In this document: positions 1 through 6,264 of the stretch, piece by piece
How the letters are laid out: each line of letters begins with the position of its first letter
Numbering within the stretch: the stretch's first letter is position 1
Source: a virus
Virus record (IMG/VR): IMGVR_UViG_3300020030_000101
Span: 1-6,264 of that record
Strand: one strand, 5' to 3'
Length of the DNA: 6,264 bases
Made by a program: the position numbers and the translations under genes
The notes under the pieces: model-generated
What the model was told of the DNA's origin: nothing
Seen by the model: only the letters and a program-made list of their open reading frames with translations
Databases searched by the model: none

Positions 1-121
1 GTTGAACGCACTTTTAAGGACCCCGAAGTTCGGTTTTCTTATCCTATGAAACCTAGTGAGCTTTTGTCTATTCTTGGAAAGATTAAGCATAATGTTCCCA
101 ATAGGATTCCTTATGTTTGTA
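1..121. repeat. Terminal redundancy (left copy), the overlap produced when a circular genome is written linearly
   Basis: By eye, gttgaacgcacttttaaggaccccgaag...ccttatgtttgta at 1..121 is identical to 6144..6264. The repeat lies inside an open reading frame that runs continuously across the junction. Confidence 0.9.
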
Positions 122-1338
122 ATCGTGACCTCGATTTGTTTTTAAAACGTTTAAGAAGTTACTACCCGGATGAAAAATTACGTTACTACGCTGTATCAGA
201 ATATGGCCCTACCAGCTTCCGCCCGCATTGGCATTTGTTATTGTTTTCCAATTCCGAACGATTCTCGCAAACTGTTCTTGAAAATGTATCTAAAGCTTGG
301 TCTTACGGACGTTGTGATGCATCACTCTCGAGAGGATTCGCAGCACCGTATGTTGCGTCGTATGTTAACAGTTTTGTCGCTTTACCCGACTTTTATACTC
401 AAATGCCAAAAGTGGTGCGACCTAAATCCTTCCATTCCATTGGATTTACAGAATCAAATCTCTTTCCTCGAAAGGTACGAATTGCCGAAATTGACGCAGT
501 TACCAATAAGTGCCTTAATGGAGTCCGCGTTGAGCGCGATGGTTATTTTCGCACAATTAAACCTACATGGCCGTATCTCCTTCGACTATTCCCCCGATTT
601 TCGAACGCTATTCGTCAATCTCCATCGAGTATTTACCAATTATTATATTCTGCGTTCACTGCGCCCGGGCGAGTCATTCGTAGCGGATGTGCAGATATAA
701 CTTGTGACCCTTTTAACGAGAATGCTCCATCTAAACAGAGTATTTTGTCTTTTTGTAAATATTATTTAAATTATGTGGATAATTATGGAAAATCAAATGA
801 ACTTAATAACTTCCTCTCTCCTCAGGCGAATCTACCGCATAGTGATATTCTCATTCTTACTGAATGTCGTTTGTACGATGGTGTTGATTTGGAAGCTACT
901 CATCGTCTCTCCCGCGTATACCGCTTTTTCCTCGGAATTGCGAAATTTATTCGAACATATTCAACAGACGGATGCTCGGAACTTTTCTGGTCCAGCGGCA
1001 CTCCTGGAGGAGAACTCTTTGGACGAGAAAGGTTCTTGCGCATTATTTCCGAGAAAATAGTTAATTTTTGGAATCGTTACGAGTACAGCCGTCTTGTGGA
1101 TTTCTATCAGACTTTGGAAGACTCCAATGATAAGGATTTGGTAGACTTTGAGCTTCGTAACTATTCTTTCCGTTATAATAGACCTCCTGAGAATAAGGAA
1201 AAACCTTATCATGAGCTCCCTCTTGTTCGTCGTTTGGCTGCCGCGGCTTTGATGAAATGTCGGGATAAGGTTAAACACAAGAGGCTTAACGATTTGTCAG
1301 GTGTTTTTTCTTATCAGGATGAGCCTGAAATTGTTTAA
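1..1338 (+). CDS. VP4: Replication initiation protein VP4, C-terminal part (continuation of 5763..6143). The joined product is about 572 aa.
   Basis: The frame is open from base 1 (VERTFKDPEVRFSYP precedes the Met at 46 used by the ORF track). HUH-type motif 2, RPHWHLLLF, has HWH at 226..234. Motif 3, APYVASYVNS, has two Tyr residues three residues apart (349..351 and 361..363), like the catalytic Tyr pair of phiX174 gpA. Stop TAA at 1336..1338. Confidence 0.9.
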   Translation, partial: VERTFKDPEVRFSYPMKPSELLSILGKIKHNVPNRIPYVCNRDLDLFLKRLRSYYPDEKLRYYAVSEYGPTSFRPHWHLLLFSNSERFSQTVLENVSKAWSYGRCDASLSRGFAAPYVASYVNSFVALPDFYTQMPKVVRPKSFHSIGFTESNLFPRKVRIAEIDAVTNKCLNGVRVERDGYFRTIKPTWPYLLRLFPRFSNAIRQSPSSIYQLLYSAFTAPGRVIRSGCADITCDPFNENAPSKQSILSFCKYYLNYVDNYGKSNELNNFLSPQANLPHSDILILTECRLYDGVDLEATHRLSRVYRFFLGIAKFIRTYSTDGCSELFWSSGTPGGELFGRERFLRIISEKIVNFWNRYEYSRLVDFYQTLEDSNDKDLVDFELRNYSFRYNRPPENKEKPYHELPLVRRLAAAALMKCRDKVKHKRLNDLSGVFSYQDEPEIV

Positions 1339-1357: not shown

Positions 1358-3211
1358 ATGGCTTCTTACACAGGAATGTCCAACCTCCAGAATCACCCTC
1401 ACCGTTCTGGATTTGATATTGGACGTAAAAATGCATTTACTGCGAAAGTTGGTGAGCTTCTTCCCGTTTATTGGGATATTTCCATGCCCGGTGATAAGTA
1501 CAAGTTCAACATTGAGTATTTCACCCGTACCCAGCCCGTTGAAACTTCTGCTTATACCCGTTTGCGTGAATATTTTGATTTTTATGCTGTGCCGTTGCGC
1601 CTTCTTTGGAAGTCTGCGCCTTCTGTGTTGACTCAAATGCAGGATATCAATCAGATTCAGGCTTTGTCTTTGACTCAGAATTTGTCGCTTGGTACTTATC
1701 TCCCTTCTATCTCTCTTTCTCAGCTTGGTGTTGTTCTTTCCCGACTTAATGGAGGGAATTATAGCCCTGGAAGCTCTTCGTCTTTGGTAAATATGTTTGG
1801 TTTTTCTCGTGGAGATTTGTCTTTTAAGTTGTTGAGTTATCTTGGTTATGGTAATGTTGTTAATACTCTACCTTCTCCTGGCAATCGTTGGTGGTCTACT
1901 TCTTTAACGAGGAATGTTGATTCAAAGAGTTATACTCAGCAATATATACAAAATGTCTATGTAAATGTTTTCCCTCTTCTTGCTTATCAGAAGATTTATC
2001 AGGATTTTTTCCGTTGGTCTCAGTGGGAAAATGCTAATCCTTCTTCTTATAATGTAGACTATTTTACGGGTATTTCTCCTACTTTAATTTCTTCTTCGAA
2101 TATTCCTGCTGTGGATTCTGCCTATTGGAAATCTAATACAATATTTGACCTCAAATATTGCAACTGGAACAAGGATATGCTGATGGGTGTTCTTCCGAAT
2201 TCTCAGTTTGGAGATGTTGCTGTAATTGACCTTCCCTCTTCAGTTTCTAATGTTCAGGTTGCTGATACTTCTGGAACTCTTCATCCCGTTGGTACTGCGA
2301 CTGTTATGAGTAAAGGGATTGCTACTTCTCCTATTGGTGTTAATTTGTCTTCTGGAGGAACTATAAATGCTGGTTCTCTTCTTTCTGTCAATGTGCAGGA
2401 TATTGCTTCTAAATTTACGGTTCTCGCTCTTCGCCAAGCCGAAGCTCTTCAACGTTGGAAAGAAGTCAGTCAATCTGGAGATAGTGATTATCGTGAACAG
2501 ATTCGTAAACATTTTGGTGTGAACTTGCCTCAAGCTCTTTCTAATATGTGTACCTATATTGGTGGTATCTCTCGCAACCTTGATATCAGTGAGGTTGTCA
2601 ATAATAACCTTGCTGCCGAAGGTAATACTGCTGTTATTGCTGGTAAAGGAGTTGGTGCTGGTGACGGTTCATTTACTTATACTACCAATGAACATTGTGT
2701 TGTTATGTGTATTTATCATGCTGTTCCCTTGCTTGATTATACAATTACTGGTCAAGACGGACAGTTGCTTGTCACTGATGCTGAAAGCCTTCCGATTCCT
2801 GAGTTTGATAATATTGGCATGGAGGTTCTTCCTATGACGCAAATTTTCAACTCCCCTCAAGCTTCTATTGTTAATCTATTTAATGCAGGTTATAATCCTC
2901 GTTATTTTAATTGGAAAACTAAACTTGATGTTGTTAATGGCGCGTTTACCACTACTCTCAAGTCTTGGGTTTCTCCTGTTACCGAATCTCTTCTTTCTGG
3001 TTGGTTTGGCTCTGGTTATGATGAAGGCGATGTTAACGAGAGTACTCGCGTTGTCTTGAATTATAAGTTCTTCAAGGTTAATCCTTCTGTTCTTGACCCC
3101 ATTTTTGGTGTCAATGCTGATTCTACCTGGGACACTGACCAGCTTTTGGTCAATTCCTATATCGGCTGCTATGTTGCCCGTAATTTGTCTCGTGATGGTG
3201 TACCTTACTAA
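1358..3211 (+). CDS. VP1: Major capsid protein VP1 (Microviridae F-protein family), 617 aa
   Basis: The N-terminus MASYTGMSNLQNHPHRSGFDIGRKNAFTAKVGELLPVYWDISMPGDKYKFNIEYFTRTQPVETSAYTRLREYFDFYAVPLRLLW matches my memory of the conserved microvirus capsid N-terminal block. The C-terminal RYFNWK...VNPSVLDPIF block also fits. It is the longest ORF and uses strongly NNT-biased codons. Confidence 0.92.
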   Translation: MASYTGMSNLQNHPHRSGFDIGRKNAFTAKVGELLPVYWDISMPGDKYKFNIEYFTRTQPVETSAYTRLREYFDFYAVPLRLLWKSAPSVLTQMQDINQIQALSLTQNLSLGTYLPSISLSQLGVVLSRLNGGNYSPGSSSSLVNMFGFSRGDLSFKLLSYLGYGNVVNTLPSPGNRWWSTSLTRNVDSKSYTQQYIQNVYVNVFPLLAYQKIYQDFFRWSQWENANPSSYNVDYFTGISPTLISSSNIPAVDSAYWKSNTIFDLKYCNWNKDMLMGVLPNSQFGDVAVIDLPSSVSNVQVADTSGTLHPVGTATVMSKGIATSPIGVNLSSGGTINAGSLLSVNVQDIASKFTVLALRQAEALQRWKEVSQSGDSDYREQIRKHFGVNLPQALSNMCTYIGGISRNLDISEVVNNNLAAEGNTAVIAGKGVGAGDGSFTYTTNEHCVVMCIYHAVPLLDYTITGQDGQLLVTDAESLPIPEFDNIGMEVLPMTQIFNSPQASIVNLFNAGYNPRYFNWKTKLDVVNGAFTTTLKSWVSPVTESLLSGWFGSGYDEGDVNESTRVVLNYKFFKVNPSVLDPIFGVNADSTWDTDQLLVNSYIGCYVARNLSRDGVPY

Positions 3212-3226
3212 TTTTTTGTTTTGATT

Positions 3227-3709
3227 ATGATAGGAAAATTTAATTGTTTGAACAGTCTGGAACAAGGTTCCGGTCTTGTTCCCGATGTTTCTCCGGATGC
3301 TTTTGCAGTTGCTCCCGAATTTGATTCTACCGAACAGCTTCGCGTTGAAATTTATGATAATGAAGAGGATTGTCCGGTGCGTTACACTTCTGATATTTGT
3401 TTAATTCTTCATACCAAGGACTTGGCTTCTCGTGCCGGTCTTGCTGTTGCCTCCAAGTTCGGACAGAGCAAGCAATCTGCCTCTCAAATTCAGCAGATTA
3501 TGGACAAGATGTCTGATGATGACCTTTTGTCAACGGTTCGTTCCCGGCATGTTCAGGCTCCTTCTGAAATTATTGCTTGGTCTAAAGAGTTGTCGGCTTA
3601 TGCTGAAAACCTTGAATCTCAAGCACAAGAATTGATTGAAACTGAAACTGCTAGACAAGAAGCAGAAAAGGCGTCTGCTGCTCCCGCCGGTTCTGCTTCC
3701 CTTGAATAA
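3227..3709 (+). CDS. Acidic 160-aa protein, putative internal scaffolding protein (VP3-like)
   Basis: ORF 3221..3709 in the track starts at TTG; the first ATG is at 3227. It sits between VP1 and VP2, and its stop overlaps the VP2 start (TAATG at 3707..3711). The protein is rich in Asp/Glu with a predicted helical C-terminus (SEIIAWSKELSAYAENLESQAQELIETETARQEAEKA). The functional call rests only on position and composition. Confidence 0.6.
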   Translation: MIGKFNCLNSLEQGSGLVPDVSPDAFAVAPEFDSTEQLRVEIYDNEEDCPVRYTSDICLILHTKDLASRAGLAVASKFGQSKQSASQIQQIMDKMSDDDLLSTVRSRHVQAPSEIIAWSKELSAYAENLESQAQELIETETARQEAEKASAAPAGSASLE

Positions 3710-4770
3710 TGGGTCTTTTTGGTTCAATCACTGGTGGTCTTCTTGGCATTGGTTCTTCTGCTATTCAGAATTCTCAGAATAGACAAAATGTCCGGGAGAC
3801 TAACCAGATGAACTATAAAATAAATCAGATGAACAATCAGTTTAACGAGCGTATGGCTATGCAGCAGCGTGATTTTCAGGAAAATATGTGGAATAAGGAA
3901 AACGCATATAATACTGCTTCCGCGCAACGTCAACGTCTTGAAGAAGCTGGTTTAAACCCTTATCTGATGATGAATGGTGGTTCTGCTGGTGTCGCTCAGT
4001 CAGCTGGTCCCGGCGCTTCTGCTTCTTCTTCTGGTTCTGCCATCATGCAACCTTTCCAGGCTGATTATTCTGGTGTCCAGCAGGCTATTGGTTCTGTGTT
4101 TCAGTCCCAGGTTCAGCAAGCCCAGGTTTCACAGTTGCAAGGACAGAAAAACCTTGCGGATGCCCAGGCTATGCAGGCTCTTTCTAATGTTGATTGGTCA
4201 AAAATGACGAAAGAAACTCGTGAGTACTTGAAGGCTACCGGCTTGGCACGCGCTCAGCTTGGTTATTCCAAGGAAATGCAGGAACTTGATAATATGGCTT
4301 TTGCCGGACGTCTTCTCCAGGCACAAGGTACCTCCCAGTTGCTTGATGCTGAAGCCAAGACCGTTCTTAACAAGTATCTTGACCAACAGCAGCAGGCTGA
4401 TTTGAATGTCAAGGCTTCTGAATATTATAATCAGATGTCTCATGGTCATTTGAACTATAACCAGGCCAAGAAGGTTCTTGCTGACGAGGTATTGACTTAT
4501 GCCCGTGCCAAAGGTCAGAAAATCAGTAATAAGGTTGCTGAAGCTACTGCCGATTCTTTGATTCGTGCTTCTAATGCTTCAAATCACTCTAATGCTGAAT
4601 TTGAGCTCGAAGCAGCTAAATTCAATCGTGAGCGCGCCCGTTCTCGTAGTATTGAGGACTGGTATCGTTCCCGTAATGAAGGCAAGAAATATAAGTATTA
4701 TGACGCTGATAAGGCTGTTCATTATGGTACTTCTATTGGTAATACTATAGGAAACTTTCTGCCCTGGTAG
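3709..4770 (+). CDS. VP2: Minor capsid / DNA pilot protein VP2, 353 aa
   Basis: Gly-rich hydrophobic N-terminus (MGLFGSITGGLLGIGSSAIQ). The block NTASAQRQRLEEAGLNPYLMM resembles the conserved (A/K)AGLNP motif I recall from microvirus VP2 proteins. A long Gln/Ala-rich, probably coiled-coil middle region is followed by a basic C-terminus. The position after VP1 and the scaffold-like gene fits. Confidence 0.8.
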   Translation: MGLFGSITGGLLGIGSSAIQNSQNRQNVRETNQMNYKINQMNNQFNERMAMQQRDFQENMWNKENAYNTASAQRQRLEEAGLNPYLMMNGGSAGVAQSAGPGASASSSGSAIMQPFQADYSGVQQAIGSVFQSQVQQAQVSQLQGQKNLADAQAMQALSNVDWSKMTKETREYLKATGLARAQLGYSKEMQELDNMAFAGRLLQAQGTSQLLDAEAKTVLNKYLDQQQQADLNVKASEYYNQMSHGHLNYNQAKKVLADEVLTYARAKGQKISNKVAEATADSLIRASNASNHSNAEFELEAAKFNRERARSRSIEDWYRSRNEGKKYKYYDADKAVHYGTSIGNTIGNFLPW

Positions 4771-4792
4771 TACTTTTGTTTGTTGTGTGTTT

Positions 4793-4827
4793 ACCCGGCT
4801 CGTAGTGATACGCGTCGGGTTTTGTTG
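4793..4827 (+). terminator. Intrinsic-terminator-like hairpin with a T-tract just downstream of VP2
   Basis: ACCCGGC-t-CGTA [GTGA] TACG-c-GTCGGGT gives 7 bp (one G-T wobble), one mismatch, then 4 bp, capped by a GNRA-type tetraloop. It is followed directly by TTTTGTTG and begins 23 nt after the VP2 stop. Confidence 0.5.
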
Positions 4828-4878
4828 CTTGGAGTAACTCCCGGCAACCGCGCGTAGCGTGGTTATACAAGTCCTAGA

Positions 4879-4902
4879 TTTTGGCGGTTTTGTCCGCTAA
4901 AA
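4879..4902. repeat. Inverted repeat / hairpin, 9-bp stem (one G-T wobble), 6-nt loop
   Basis: TTTTGGCGG (4879..4887) pairs with CCGCTAAAA (4894..4902). The loop is TTTTGT. Confidence 0.7.
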
Positions 4903-4918
4903 TCGTGAGTCGAAGACT

Positions 4919-4978
4919 CTAAATATAAGAACACACATGAAGGGAGCATAGCGACCGTTGCTAAACACCTAAATATAA
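4919..4978. repeat. 10-nt exact direct repeat CTAAATATAA, two copies starting 50 nt apart
   Basis: Copies lie at 4919..4928 and 4969..4978, flanking a short segment that also repeats AACAC-type strings. Confidence 0.6.
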
Positions 4979-5010
4979 ATTGGCGAAGCCTACATGAGTT
5001 TGCCCGTAGG

Positions 5011-5035
5011 GAAAGCGATTTACCCCATCGCTTTC
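5011..5035. repeat. Perfect 9-bp inverted repeat forming a hairpin with a 7-nt loop
   Basis: GAAAGCGAT (5011..5019) and ATCGCTTTC (5027..5035) are exact reverse complements. The loop is TTACCCC. Confidence 0.8.
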
Positions 5036-5126
5036 AACCTTCTCTTGTCTTATATACGCAAACTCACAGACCAGCCTTCCACCCGCATAGCTTATTGTTT
5101 ATTAATGTTAATAATATATGCTCATA

Positions 5127-5159
5127 TTTGTTTTTTTCAAATTTTTATTTGTACCTTTG
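5127..5159 (+). promoter_or_regulatory. Bacteroidetes-type promoter: -33 TTTG, 21-nt spacer, -7 TAccTTTG
   Basis: TTTG lies at 5127..5130 and TACCTTTG at 5152..5159. This matches the Bacteroides primary-sigma consensus as I recall it (TTTG, 19-21 nt, TAnnTTTG). It sits in an AT-rich tract about 45 nt upstream of the first ATG of the small-gene/VP4 block. Confidence 0.55.
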
Positions 5160-5201
5160 CTTTGTCTTTAAAACCAATGTATAATTAAAATTTTAAATGT
5201 T

Positions 5202-5375
5202 ATGGAAAAGTATTATCTGTGCTCTGTTCAATCGAAGGTTGACCCTAATCAGAATGAGACTATTCTTGTTCTCGTTGACGAAGTTTCTGAATTTGTTTCT
5301 TCGCATCTTCGCCCTGATTGTGTTCTTATTATTTCTCATTGTTCAACTTTTAAAGCAATTTCTGATGAAAAGTGA
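5202..5375 (+). CDS. Hypothetical 57-aa protein (below the ORF-track length cutoff)
   Basis: My translation is MEKYYLCSVQSKVDPNQNETILVLVDEVSEFVSSHLRPDCVLIISHCSTFKAISDEK, ending at TGA 5373..5375. By my count about 35 of 57 codons end in T, the same bias as VP1 and VP2. ATG 5202 is the first ATG after an in-frame TAA at 5169 and lies just downstream of the predicted promoter. The amino-acid composition is balanced, unlike the overlapping 85-aa frame. Confidence 0.55.
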   Translation: MEKYYLCSVQSKVDPNQNETILVLVDEVSEFVSSHLRPDCVLIISHCSTFKAISDEK

Positions 5376-5454
5376 AACTAAATCTAAAATCTGGGCTGCT
5401 GTTATTGCAGCTGCTGTCAGCCTTCTTACGTCTATTGCCAAAATTTTTTCGTAG
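5365..5454 (+). CDS. Putative 29-aa single-pass membrane peptide (candidate holin-like lysis accessory)
   Basis: MKSETKSKIWAAVIAAAVSLLTSIAKIFS has a charged N-terminus followed by about 17 hydrophobic residues. About half of its codons end in T. Its ATG overlaps the last codons of the 57-aa ORF, and its stop TAG (5452..5454) lies 3 nt before the peptidase ATG. It is the only part of track ORF 5197..5454 that is not a shadow of the 57-aa frame. Confidence 0.4.
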   Translation: MKSETKSKIWAAVIAAAVSLLTSIAKIFS

Positions 5455-5457
5455 ATT

Positions 5458-5766
5458 ATGAATCCTGAATTAATGAAATTTGTTGAGTGGCTTCTTCGCC
5501 AAAACATTCATTTTACTGTTACTTCTGCTCTTCGTACTGTAGCGCAGAATAGTGCGTGTAATGGTTCTCCTAATTCTCAGCATTTGACCGGAGATGCCAT
5601 TGACCTGGCACCTGTCGATTTTCCGATTGGTGTTTTCTACTCGATGGTTGAAGATTCTCCCTTTGGATTTGACCAGCTTATAAGATATCGTACATTTATT
5701 CACGTTTCCTTTGCTCGTGGTCGTAAGCCTCGTCAAATGAAACTTGATTTTACTGATAGAAAATGA
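5458..5766 (+). CDS. Zinc D,D- or L,D-peptidase of the M15 family (VanY / Peptidase_M15_3-like), putative endolysin, 102 aa
   Basis: TSALRTVAQNSACNGSPNSQHLTGDAIDL contains the S-x-H-x-x-G-x-A-x-D signature, with His at 5581..5583 and Asp at 5602..5604. A distal YRTFIHVSF supplies the third ligand, His at 5701..5703. No N-terminal signal peptide is apparent. The stop TGA overlaps the VP4 ATG (ATGA at 5763..5766). Confidence 0.75.
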   Translation: MNPELMKFVEWLLRQNIHFTVTSALRTVAQNSACNGSPNSQHLTGDAIDLAPVDFPIGVFYSMVEDSPFGFDQLIRYRTFIHVSFARGRKPRQMKLDFTDRK

Positions 5767-6264
5767 TTACCAAGGAATTGCAGAATAAGTTAGTGACTCG
5801 TTGTCAGCATCCTCGTACGGTTGTTAACAAGTATACACATGAGCCTGTTCTCGTGTCTTGTGGTTCTTGCCCTTCTTGTATTCTCCGTCGTTCCGGTATT
5901 CAGACTAACCTGCTTACTGCTTATTCTGCTCAGTTTCGCTATGTTTATTTTGTTACTCTTACTTATGCTCCTTGTTTCCTTCCTACTTTGGAGGTTTCGG
6001 TTGTTGAAACTTGTACGGACGATATTGCGGACGTGTCTTGCGTTCCCGATATTAATGACCTGGACGCTAGTGACCCTAACACTTATTTGTTTGGTTTTCG
6101 TAGCGTTCCTCGTTCTGCCTCTGTTAAGTTGAAAAATTCTACCGTTGAACGCACTTTTAAGGACCCCGAAGTTCGGTTTTCTTATCCTATGAAACCTAGT
6201 GAGCTTTTGTCTATTCTTGGAAAGATTAAGCATAATGTTCCCAATAGGATTCCTTATGTTTGTA
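5763..6264 (+). CDS. VP4: Replication initiation protein VP4 (HUH rolling-circle endonuclease), N-terminal part. It runs off the window end and continues at position 1.
   Basis: This ORF is absent from the ORF track because it has no stop in the window. ATG at 5763 follows an in-frame TAG at 5757. My translation is MITKELQNKLVTRCQHPRTVVNKYTHEPVLVSCGSCPSCILRRSGIQTNLLTAYSAQFRYVYFVTLTYAPCF... It has a Cys/His cluster (C14, H16, C33, C36, C39) and Rep motif 1, FVTLTY, at 5949..5966. The frame stays open through 6143 into 6144, which equals position 1. Confidence 0.85.
   Translation, partial: MITKELQNKLVTRCQHPRTVVNKYTHEPVLVSCGSCPSCILRRSGIQTNLLTAYSAQFRYVYFVTLTYAPCFLPTLEVSVVETCTDDIADVSCVPDINDLDASDPNTYLFGFRSVPRSASVKLKNSTVERTFKDPEVRFSYPMKPSELLSILGKIKHNVPNRIPYVC
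6144..6264. repeat. Terminal redundancy (right copy), duplicate of 1..121
   Basis: Same 121-nt string as 1..121. The offset of 6143 gives the genome length. Confidence 0.9.

Follow-up and report, generated by a model that had tools for sequence, protein, structure and literature searches.

Why does a small phage genome that leaves little space between its genes keep one gene-free block crowded with hairpins? The question is raised by IMG/VR virus record IMGVR_UViG_3300020030_000101, whose 6,264 nt (the window, meaning the whole stretch that was analyzed) represent a complete circular microvirus (Microviridae) genome. An earlier reading of the bare letters, the sequence-only reading, had described a hairpin-dense non-coding island making up about 7 percent of the genome, and this holds: the sole long non-coding stretch is 4771..5196/5201, that is 426-431 nt or 7.0% of a 6143-nt genome. 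The same reading put the other gene junctions at about 20 nt down to overlaps, which is true of most of them, the exception being an 82-nt gap (5376-5457) between a 57-amino-acid (aa) open reading frame (ORF) and a peptidase gene. We propose, with a probability of roughly 60%, that the island is a cis-acting control region in which a complementary-strand origin cassette is followed by a probable nick site for the replication protein Rep, and that it acts mainly as folded single-stranded DNA (ssDNA) in the packaged strand. We infer these biochemical roles, and which module would serve which origin, from conservation, covariation, strand bias, loop types, inheritance by module and the way in which the cassette is oriented to the T-rich strand.

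The island folds into conserved, covarying modules

When folded as DNA, positions 4771-5126 reached -53.7 kcal/mol, compared with -36.9 +/- 4.7 for dinucleotide-shuffled controls (z -3.57); folded as RNA, they reached -111.2 against -86.5 +/- 5.4 (z -4.58), and in neither case did any of 100 shuffles match the native energy. All of the stems that had been named from the letters were found, although the GTGA-capped 11-bp stem at 4793-4820 is interrupted by one 1x1 mismatch. The other named pairings are as follows.

4877-4887 with 4894-4904, + strand: 11-bp stem
5011-5019 with 5027-5035, + strand: perfect 9-bp stem
4995-5003 with 5058-5066, + strand: perfect 9-bp long-range pair

The same island is present in more than 100 related gut microviruses, and comparison among them resolves its folded part into six modules, A to F.

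4793..4827, + strand: module A, hairpin ACCCGGC-T-CGTA[GTGA]TACG-C-GTCGGGT followed by TTTTGTTG, directly 3' of the pilot gene stop
4829..4870, + strand: module B, consisting of a conserved AGTAACT, a weak GGAG/CTCC pairing (4831-4841), mini-hairpin B2 and an invariant tail GGTTATACA
4847-4863, + strand: mini-hairpin B2, ACCGCGC[GTA]GCGTGGT, which includes GCGTAGC
4877..4904, + strand: module C, 11-bp hairpin GATTTTGGCGG / CCGCTAAAATC
4907..4919, + strand: module D, mini-hairpin GAGTC[GAA]GACTC
4920..4975, + strand: module E remnant, ~35-170 nt shorter than in relatives, with the 3' end GCATAGCGACCGTTGCTAAACACC retained
4982..5066, + strand: module F, a three-way junction and candidate Rep nick site

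Compensatory base changes, the expected mark of a selected fold, were found in modules A-D and in F. In modules A-D, 36 pairs were 95.1% paired in 47 sequences and 18 of them showed compensatory change, whereas slid controls were only 29-46% paired; in module F, 22 pairs were 97.6% paired in 50 sequences, 15 with compensatory changes, against 25-43% for slid controls. None of 500 shuffles reached any of these measures for A-D or for F, though the aligned sequences are related to one another and the shuffle controls overstate the significance. A coding origin of this conservation was rejected: no reading frame is conserved across F, the ORF at 4994-5188 is not kept, the spacer differs in length, from 7 to 10 nt, and open frames are inconsistent among relatives.

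Module B is near-invariant in 108 distinct contexts, with one covarying stem pair (C-G 103, T-A 5) and one invariant G·T, and it is still 91% identical in Dulem virus 262, an otherwise very divergent genome. Module C has other sequences with the same pairing in relatives (one pair is T-A in 27 and C-G in 18) plus a conserved G·T; the variant found in the window is shared by L074 and L082. The stems of module D covary as GCC/GGC, ACC/GGT, GCT/AGC, TGC/GCA and TTCAC/GTGAA. The spacing from B to F in the window, 201 nt, is the shortest of all, versus 235-370 nt elsewhere, and an exact 10-nt direct repeat CTAAATATAA at 4919-4928 and 4969-4978 brackets the shortened segment; the first of the two copies is a possible junction of a deletion or recombination event.

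A motif TA(T/A)AC(A/C)CC recurs 3' of the hairpin domains, as GGTTATACA after B2 and as GCTAAACACC or GCTATACCCC after E (4864-4870 and 4960-4969 in the window), and has a counterpart, CCGTTATACACCC, in the antisense islands of an unrelated lineage (L153, L155, L172). It is a candidate priming or recognition site.

Loops and wobble pairs point to folded plus-strand DNA

The pentamer CGTAG had been noticed three times in the island, at 4801, 4853 and 5005. These occurrences were confirmed, and their recurrence is explained by the loop of a C-GNA-G DNA mini-hairpin. CGAAG is also present, at 4911 and 4984. The density of CGNAG is 16.2 per kb in the island versus 2.4 per kb elsewhere, a roughly seven-fold enrichment (Poisson P = 0.001), with five copies on the island's plus strand and none on its minus strand. 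The resulting mini-hairpins are GCGTAGC (4852-4858), TCGAAGA (4910-4916), GCGAAGC (4983-4989) and CCGTAGG (5004-5010), and the islands of relatives carry CCGAAGG, CCGTTAGG and GCGAAAGC. Across 108 contexts, the B2 triloop is GTA in 64, GAA in 37, GCA in 5 and GGA in 2, so that G and A are fixed within a C-G closing pair. Module D loops are GAA, GTA, GTTA, GTCA, GCCA, GCAA and GTAA, rarely TTTA; loops with a pyrimidine at the third position follow the GNA/GNNA rule of DNA rather than the GNRA type of RNA. In modules A, B and C, G·T pairs are kept or alternate with G-C. This conservation, together with GNA loops on the plus strand only, indicates that it is the plus strand that folds.

Such loops have precedents at sites where DNA synthesis starts. 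GCGNAGC and GCGNNAGC form extraordinarily stable DNA mini-hairpins that bind single-stranded DNA-binding protein (SSB) poorly, and mini-hairpins of this kind lie at the primer-start hairpins of G4 (GCGAAAGC) and of St-1 and alpha3 (GCGTTAGC), while RSF1010 ssiA carries a CCGAAGG mini-hairpin (PMC13037366).

The cassette is inverted in a second microvirus lineage

Modules B-E recur at ~90% identity in seven metagenome contigs and two IMG/VR contigs of a second microvirus lineage, which encodes a Phage_F capsid, a short REP_ORF2-G2P Rep and an M15 peptidase, and whose proteins have no tblastn similarity to those of the window. In all of these contigs the cassette lies opposite to every gene, and the B2 G·T pair is kept in the cassette sense. 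This antisense placement argues against an element of the mRNA.

Base composition connects the two orientations. At four-fold sites, the window has T 0.63, C 0.17, A 0.12 and G 0.08; computed over 36 genomes, the coding strand of the second lineage shows the mirror image, with A at 0.60-0.72, T at 0.08-0.18, G at 0.08-0.17 and C at 0.03-0.14. In each lineage the T-rich strand bears the cassette, although this is the gene-sense strand in the window's lineage and the antisense strand in the second. In ssDNA phages, C-to-T bias marks the strand that spends time single-stranded (PMC4032129). The antisense strand of the second lineage (signals in L086, L092, L113, L131, L136 and L146-L176, whose coding-strand A spans 0.53-0.72 at four-fold sites) also carries origin-like sequences: motifs of the CTTGATAT type occur 56 times antisense and once sense, where composition alone predicts ~4:1, and include ACTTGATATTAA and ATTACTTGATATTAA, each a 12/12 match to the phiX174 origin. 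Moreover, this lineage has a conserved non-coding island of its own that folds on the antisense strand, contains covarying mini-hairpins (CGAC-GAA-GTCG and GACC-GTA-GGTC) and, as module B does, terminates in GTTATACAC. The count of perfect mini-hairpins is 27 antisense versus 9 sense.

The inverted cassette, the mirror-image composition, the 12/12 phiX-type motif and the native antisense mini-hairpin islands all agree with packaging of the strand antisense to the genes. That the second lineage, a large and abundant clade of gut microviruses, does this, and that the cassette is a portable, host-recognized priming signal confined to the encapsidated strand, is in our judgment an even bet. Negative-sense Microviridae would be contrary to the textbook picture of the family. 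To be exchanged among phages whose proteins are unrelated, a cassette has to rely on host factors, and the link between its orientation and the packaged strand indicates an ssDNA stage; these are the properties of a complementary-strand origin. Among the three roles that the sequence-only reading had offered, the complementary-strand origin thus suits most of the block and the transcription terminator its first hairpin only, while a structured RNA within an mRNA does not agree with the antisense cassette.

A structured RNA could also be free-standing: the cassette, F or both might encode one or more non-coding RNAs with their own promoter, whose independence from gene orientation would then be natural. 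The RNA fold (z -4.6) suits this idea, and covariation and G·U-compatible pairs are equally expected of an RNA. We nevertheless consider it quite improbable. A scan with the Rfam 15 covariance models, at E up to 10, gave no island match in the window or in three other versions of the island; the two lineages have no promoter-like motif in common upstream and no terminator downstream; the loops obey the DNA rule (GNA, and GNNA with pyrimidines) instead of GNRA; and origin-like motifs accompany the cassette on the T-rich strand of both lineages.

Module F is a candidate viral-strand origin

Module F differs from the cassette in architecture and inheritance. Its parts, all on the + strand, are listed below.

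4982-4990, + strand: mini-hairpin GGC[GAA]GCC
4995-5002 with 5059-5066, + strand: closing stem of the three-way junction
5003-5011, + strand: hairpin CCC[GTA]GGG
5011/5012-5019 with 5027-5034/5035, + strand: 8-9-bp stem
5036-5057, + strand: unpaired, near-invariant stretch AACCTTCTCTTGTCTTATATAC

The two inner hairpins stack straight on the closing stem, which leaves 22 nt unpaired, and within them CTYGTCTNATATRYG is essentially invariant; the junction thus displays an almost invariant unpaired CTCTTGTCTTATATAC. The most distant copies of F have wholly different stem sequences and the same architecture. F is retained where Rep is only 28-30% and the major capsid protein (MCP) 26-29% identical, always lies 5' of Rep in the same orientation, and does not occur in the lineage that has another Rep. 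An invariant core at less than 30% protein identity that is tied to the Rep clade behaves like a Rep-linked origin. F is also nearly devoid of G·T pairs (2 one-sided versus 53 two-sided changes), which would be expected if both strands pair when the element is extruded from the supercoiled replicative form.

The core of F can be written CTTG-N2-TTATAT, and compares with CTTG-ATA-TTATAT in the equivalent island of Dulem virus 262 (which carries CTACTTGATATTATATG) and with CTTG-ATA-TTAATA in phiX174. In its letters it reads like a diverged member of a CTTG-N2-3-TTATAT series. We consider F the probable Rep nick site, and hence the predicted viral-strand origin. Additional matches to a 15-mer of the F core in IMG/VR (~40) were dismissed as chance, since all of them are without the closing stem.

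Several observations weigh against the proposed reading of the island. The minus strand of the island folds equally well (z -3.99), so that thermodynamics does not separate the strands and energy alone is uninformative on which of them folds. The identification of the T-rich strand as the packaged one is, for the second lineage, itself deduced, and an inverted orientation would arise by chance in 50% of cases were the cassette an independent RNA gene. The phiX174 origin has no match within 3 mismatches in the window, and the resemblance of the F core to it is not significant, as 22-25% of shuffles score as well. The cultured Bacteroides fragilis microvirus phiHBP1 is without the island, which is therefore not universal. 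Finally, a phiX-like motif is present elsewhere in the window: 18 of 20 close relatives retain the capsid-gene site CAACCTTGATATCAGTGAGGTT (2574-2594), in every case on the sense strand.

This last site allows the roles to be reversed, with F as the complementary-strand origin used by host primase or RNA polymerase, its conserved unpaired stretch serving for recognition, the capsid-gene CAACCTTGATAT hairpin (2574-2594) as the viral-strand origin, and B-D as an accessory or second priming signal. The capsid-gene site matches CTTGATAT exactly at 2579, is preceded by CAAC and lies on the 5' side of the loop of a 5-bp hairpin; the phiX174 origin is likewise inside a gene, and F holds two C-GNA-G mini-hairpins that resemble known priming sites. 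However, the capsid-gene motif is missing from mar63, L143 and L048, although all three retain F together with a homologous Rep, and the conservation of the motif is explicable by the peptide NLDISEV combined with T-biased codons; CTTGATA occurs twice in the window versus 0.9 times expected. Moreover, a host-recognized element should swap between lineages as the cassette does, whereas F tracks the Rep clade. We regard this exchange of roles as unlikely, and retain F as the probable viral-strand origin.

A terminator-like hairpin and a predicted promoter flank the proposed origin modules

Module A has a GC-rich hairpin, a T/U run and a position at the end of the operon, the sequence features by which intrinsic terminators are recognized. 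In 47 relatives, compensatory changes affect 7 of 10 core stem pairs, with frequent G·T/G-C alternation, and the T-run is retained. In mar62 and mar63 the position of module A is taken by an unrelated GC hairpin with a T-run, a replacement that suggests a functional analogue of an intrinsic terminator. A simple terminator scan found nothing; it missed module A because of the internal mismatch. Module A is therefore best described as a predicted, intrinsic-terminator-like element that would end transcription of the capsid, scaffold and pilot genes.

Could the hairpins serve gene expression only, as terminators or as an attenuator in which GTCGGG pairs with either copy of CCCGGC? The likeness of module A to an intrinsic terminator is what speaks for it. 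Yet the 3' arm of A covaries with its own 5' arm (CCCAGT/GCTGGG, TCCGGC/GCCGGA), and the second CCCGGC is TCTGGC or TTTGGC in relatives without following the changes in A's arm; the alternative pairing was rejected for this lack of covariation. The cassette is antisense to the genes in the second lineage, and the 22 covarying pairs of F lie 3' of the terminator and 5' of the promoter. We accordingly give very little credence to a role confined to expression.

The AT-rich end of the island contains the following features.

5067..5126, + strand: conserved tail, CAGACCAGCC..CCACCCGCATAGC, then the palindrome
5099-5114: perfect palindrome TTATTAA-TG-TTAATAA, kept as TTATTTATGTTAATAA in most relatives
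5127..5159, + strand: predicted Bacteroides-type promoter, TTTG at 5127-5130, 21 nt, then TACCTTTG at 5152-5159

The palindrome may be a protein-binding site. The promoter matches the -33/-7 consensus pattern, and relatives preserve its -7 box, which in them reads TATCTTTG or TATATTTG. By comparison, the lone -7-like box that had been pointed out right after the pilot gene stop is present (TACTTTTG, 4771-4778) and is not conserved in relatives.

The island is thus placed between a terminator-like hairpin and the next promoter, and a replication cycle can be proposed around it. After injection, SSB would coat the T-rich strand (here the coding-sense strand) and spare the stable mini-hairpin cassette, modules B-D and the E remnant, which would mark where host primase or RNA polymerase lays the complementary-strand primer; the cassette would then be the minus-strand origin. 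On the replicative form, transcription would run from the promoter at 5127-5159 round the circle to terminator A, as the consensus signals suggest, with the promoter at the AT-rich end driving the small ORF, the peptidase and Rep. Rep would nick the unpaired CTCTTG-TCTTATATAC of F, starting and ending rolling-circle synthesis, with displacement of the viral strand.

Some relatives carry an attachment core in the same island

In a subset of relatives, the AT-rich part of the island contains an attachment (att) core TATATTAAACATnnTnCTGATATTG of 25-28 nt. It flanks prophage L128 as a direct repeat (1400-1830 and 7880-8400) and is also found at the junction of prophages L082 (3600-3760) and L108 (5860-5990), adjoining host Usp/BatD genes; all three prophages belong to the window's lineage and have universal-stress-protein and BatD/TPR genes as neighbors. 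In the free phages L002-L004 the core is single copy. Part of it, ATTAAACATAA, resembles the reverse complement of the XerD arm of Escherichia coli dif. Xer/dif-like sites are accordingly a property of these relatives, and the window has none, its alignment showing a 30-nt gap where the core would be; close by it has the palindrome of 5099-5114 instead. Bacteroidales microvirus proviruses are flanked by dif-like sites, and integrase-free integration has been proposed for them (PMC3091885), a proposal with which the repeats of the L128 type agree.

One might then ask whether the folded region is a recombination substrate, an Xer-type attachment site used as folded ssDNA as in phage CTX. Relatives do integrate at a dif-like direct repeat within the same island, and do so with no integrase, in keeping with the flanking dif-like sites of Bacteroidales proviruses (PMC3091885). 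But the att core is not among the hairpins: it is found ~70-90 nt 3' of F, within the AT-rich part, and the window keeps all of the hairpins without it. We attach hardly any weight to this explanation, and continue to read the hairpins as replication signals.

Comparison with known replication origins

Microviruses are among the most abundant gut phages. To our knowledge, their replication signals are known only for phiX174 and the G4-type coliphages. The island resembles several known systems in different respects, by analogy: in layout the f1/M13 intergenic region, in chemistry G4, St-1 and ssiA, and in inheritance the single-strand origins of rolling-circle plasmids. It is a sequence relative of none of them.

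The origins of G4, St-1, alpha3 and phiK are, like the island, intergenic hairpin clusters on the packaged strand; the island is non-coding and lies on the T-rich coding strand, which would be the packaged one here. Both have GCGNAGC / GCGNNAGC mini-hairpins with C-G closing pairs and sheared G·A (PMC13037366), and by analogy would share the presumed role of staying free of SSB and marking the priming site. There is no detectable sequence similarity between the two, and the hairpins of the island are different and more numerous. In addition, the island would work in a Bacteroidales host with unstudied priming enzymes, and its cassette moves between unrelated microviruses.

The intergenic region of f1/M13/fd likewise combines, in one block of ~500 nt on the packaged strand, a terminator, minus-origin hairpins and a plus origin with its nick site. 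It belongs to another virus family with another Rep and has no sequence relation to the island; its packaging-signal role is not expected in a microvirus, and the mimicry of a sigma-70 promoter by the M13 hairpins was not seen in the island.

The plasmid single-strand origins ssoA, ssoT, ssoU and ssoW and RSF1010 ssiA/ssiB are orientation-dependent folded ssDNA signals that use host enzymes, as the cassette would by analogy. They are also exchanged as cassettes independently of the Rep/double-strand-origin module, as is the cassette of the island. The CCGAAGG heptamer of ssiA is the same as in hairpin D of relatives and hairpin H3 of F. The elements that define ssoA are RS-B and CS-6 (TAGCGT in the terminal loop); a hexamer TAGCGT at 4855-4860, overlapping the B2 loop and 3' stem, could be chance. 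A difference is that the cassette was found in none of 72,556 plasmids.

With the viral-strand origin of phiX174 (CAACTTG|ATATTAATAAC), the F core shares CTTG and the AT-rich TTATAT, and ACTTGATATTA is found in sister lineages, either within the corresponding island or on the T-rich strand. The 30-nt CAACTTGATATTAATAAC... recognition/nick sequence of phiX174 is not present in the window, where only CTTG..TTATAT is shared. The core of F is set in a three-way junction; the phiX174 origin lies inside gene A and requires no hairpin.

Among other microviruses, the reekeekee- and roodoodoo-microviruses have intergenic DNA hairpins with compensatory substitutions, tentatively tied to negative-strand initiation (PMC9865509). 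These are other clades with one or two simple hairpins and have no mini-hairpin signature, cassette sharing or three-way junction. In the literature we found no description of this island family, of its cassette behavior or of antisense-packaging microviruses.

Origin signals are expected in such phages, but we know of no description of this family for Bacteroides-type (Alpavirinae-like) microviruses, for which the island supplies candidate origins of both strands. If the proposed reading is true, the minus-strand signal is a mobile cassette of DNA mini-hairpins and could serve as a sequence marker for the packaged strand, and an antisense-packaging clade would alter genome annotation and the reading of single-stranded virome libraries. 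A defined origin would also make it easier to construct replicons for these uncultured phages, and systems for their rescue, in laboratory strains of Bacteroides.

Genome organization and distribution of the island

The unique part of the circular genome is followed by a 121-nt terminal repeat, bases 6144-6264 repeating 1-121 exactly, in agreement with the annotation of direct terminal repeats in IMG/VR record G000. Linearization cuts the Rep ORF, so that the joined protein has 572 aa compared with a 430-aa ORF in the raw window. Every gene is on the + strand.

5763..6143 joined to 1..1338, + strand: Rep
1358..3211, + strand: MCP
3221..3709, + strand: scaffold
3709..4770, + strand: DNA pilot
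5202..5375, + strand: 57-aa ORF
5458..5766, + strand: M15 peptidase

The island had been called more GC-rich than the genes. The difference is modest in 4771-5079 (G+C 0.46 versus 0.41 genome-wide) and is reversed in 5080-5201, where G+C is only 0.21.

The nearest entries in GenBank, 80-86% identical, are microviruses from faeces named 'Dulem' and 'bajarodmic'; they have the Rep-then-MCP order and ~6.3-kb size that is also found in Bacteroidales (Alpavirinae-type) proviruses (PMC3091885). The more distant cultured relative phiHBP1 infects B. fragilis (PMC13064476), and its MCP is 41% identical to that of the window. Searches outside the gut microviruses were negative: a blastn search of 50,697 phage records (11-base words) gave, apart from chance matches, gut microviruses only, and in 401 sampled Bacteroidota genomes the island was not found, the single match being a chance one inside a gene. 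A capsid-protein search of species genomes yielded short, contaminant-like contigs and no prophage.

All close relatives have a non-coding block of 340-840 nt 3' of the pilot gene. Pattern scans with the two most conserved pieces recovered 53 IMG/VR contigs and ~70 metagenome contigs, nearly all of them 6.1-6.6-kb microviruses from gut samples. The pieces do not always travel together, as Dulem virus 262 shares only module B, and F alone is shared by mar63, L048 and a porcine microvirus; extra inserts occur in baja1134 and others. Judged from these sequences, the island is a mosaic of independently inherited modules. In L004 (bajarodmic virus 410; 1144-1420), the island extends to ~840 nt, with a second module A and two copies of a CTCAAATTTACGAG...TCACTC hairpin unit.

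Two further observations concern individual contigs. In the Saccharospirillum and Marinomonas assemblies, contigs L062 and L063 are 1.4-1.9 kb long and encode a capsid protein 76-79% identical to that of the window; they probably represent gut-microvirus DNA that has contaminated the assemblies of marine isolates, and not prophages. In the second lineage, L131 has on its minus strand (4154-5299) a Fic/DOC-family gene with DUF4172 and HTH domains, an unusual cargo for a 5.9-kb ssDNA phage.

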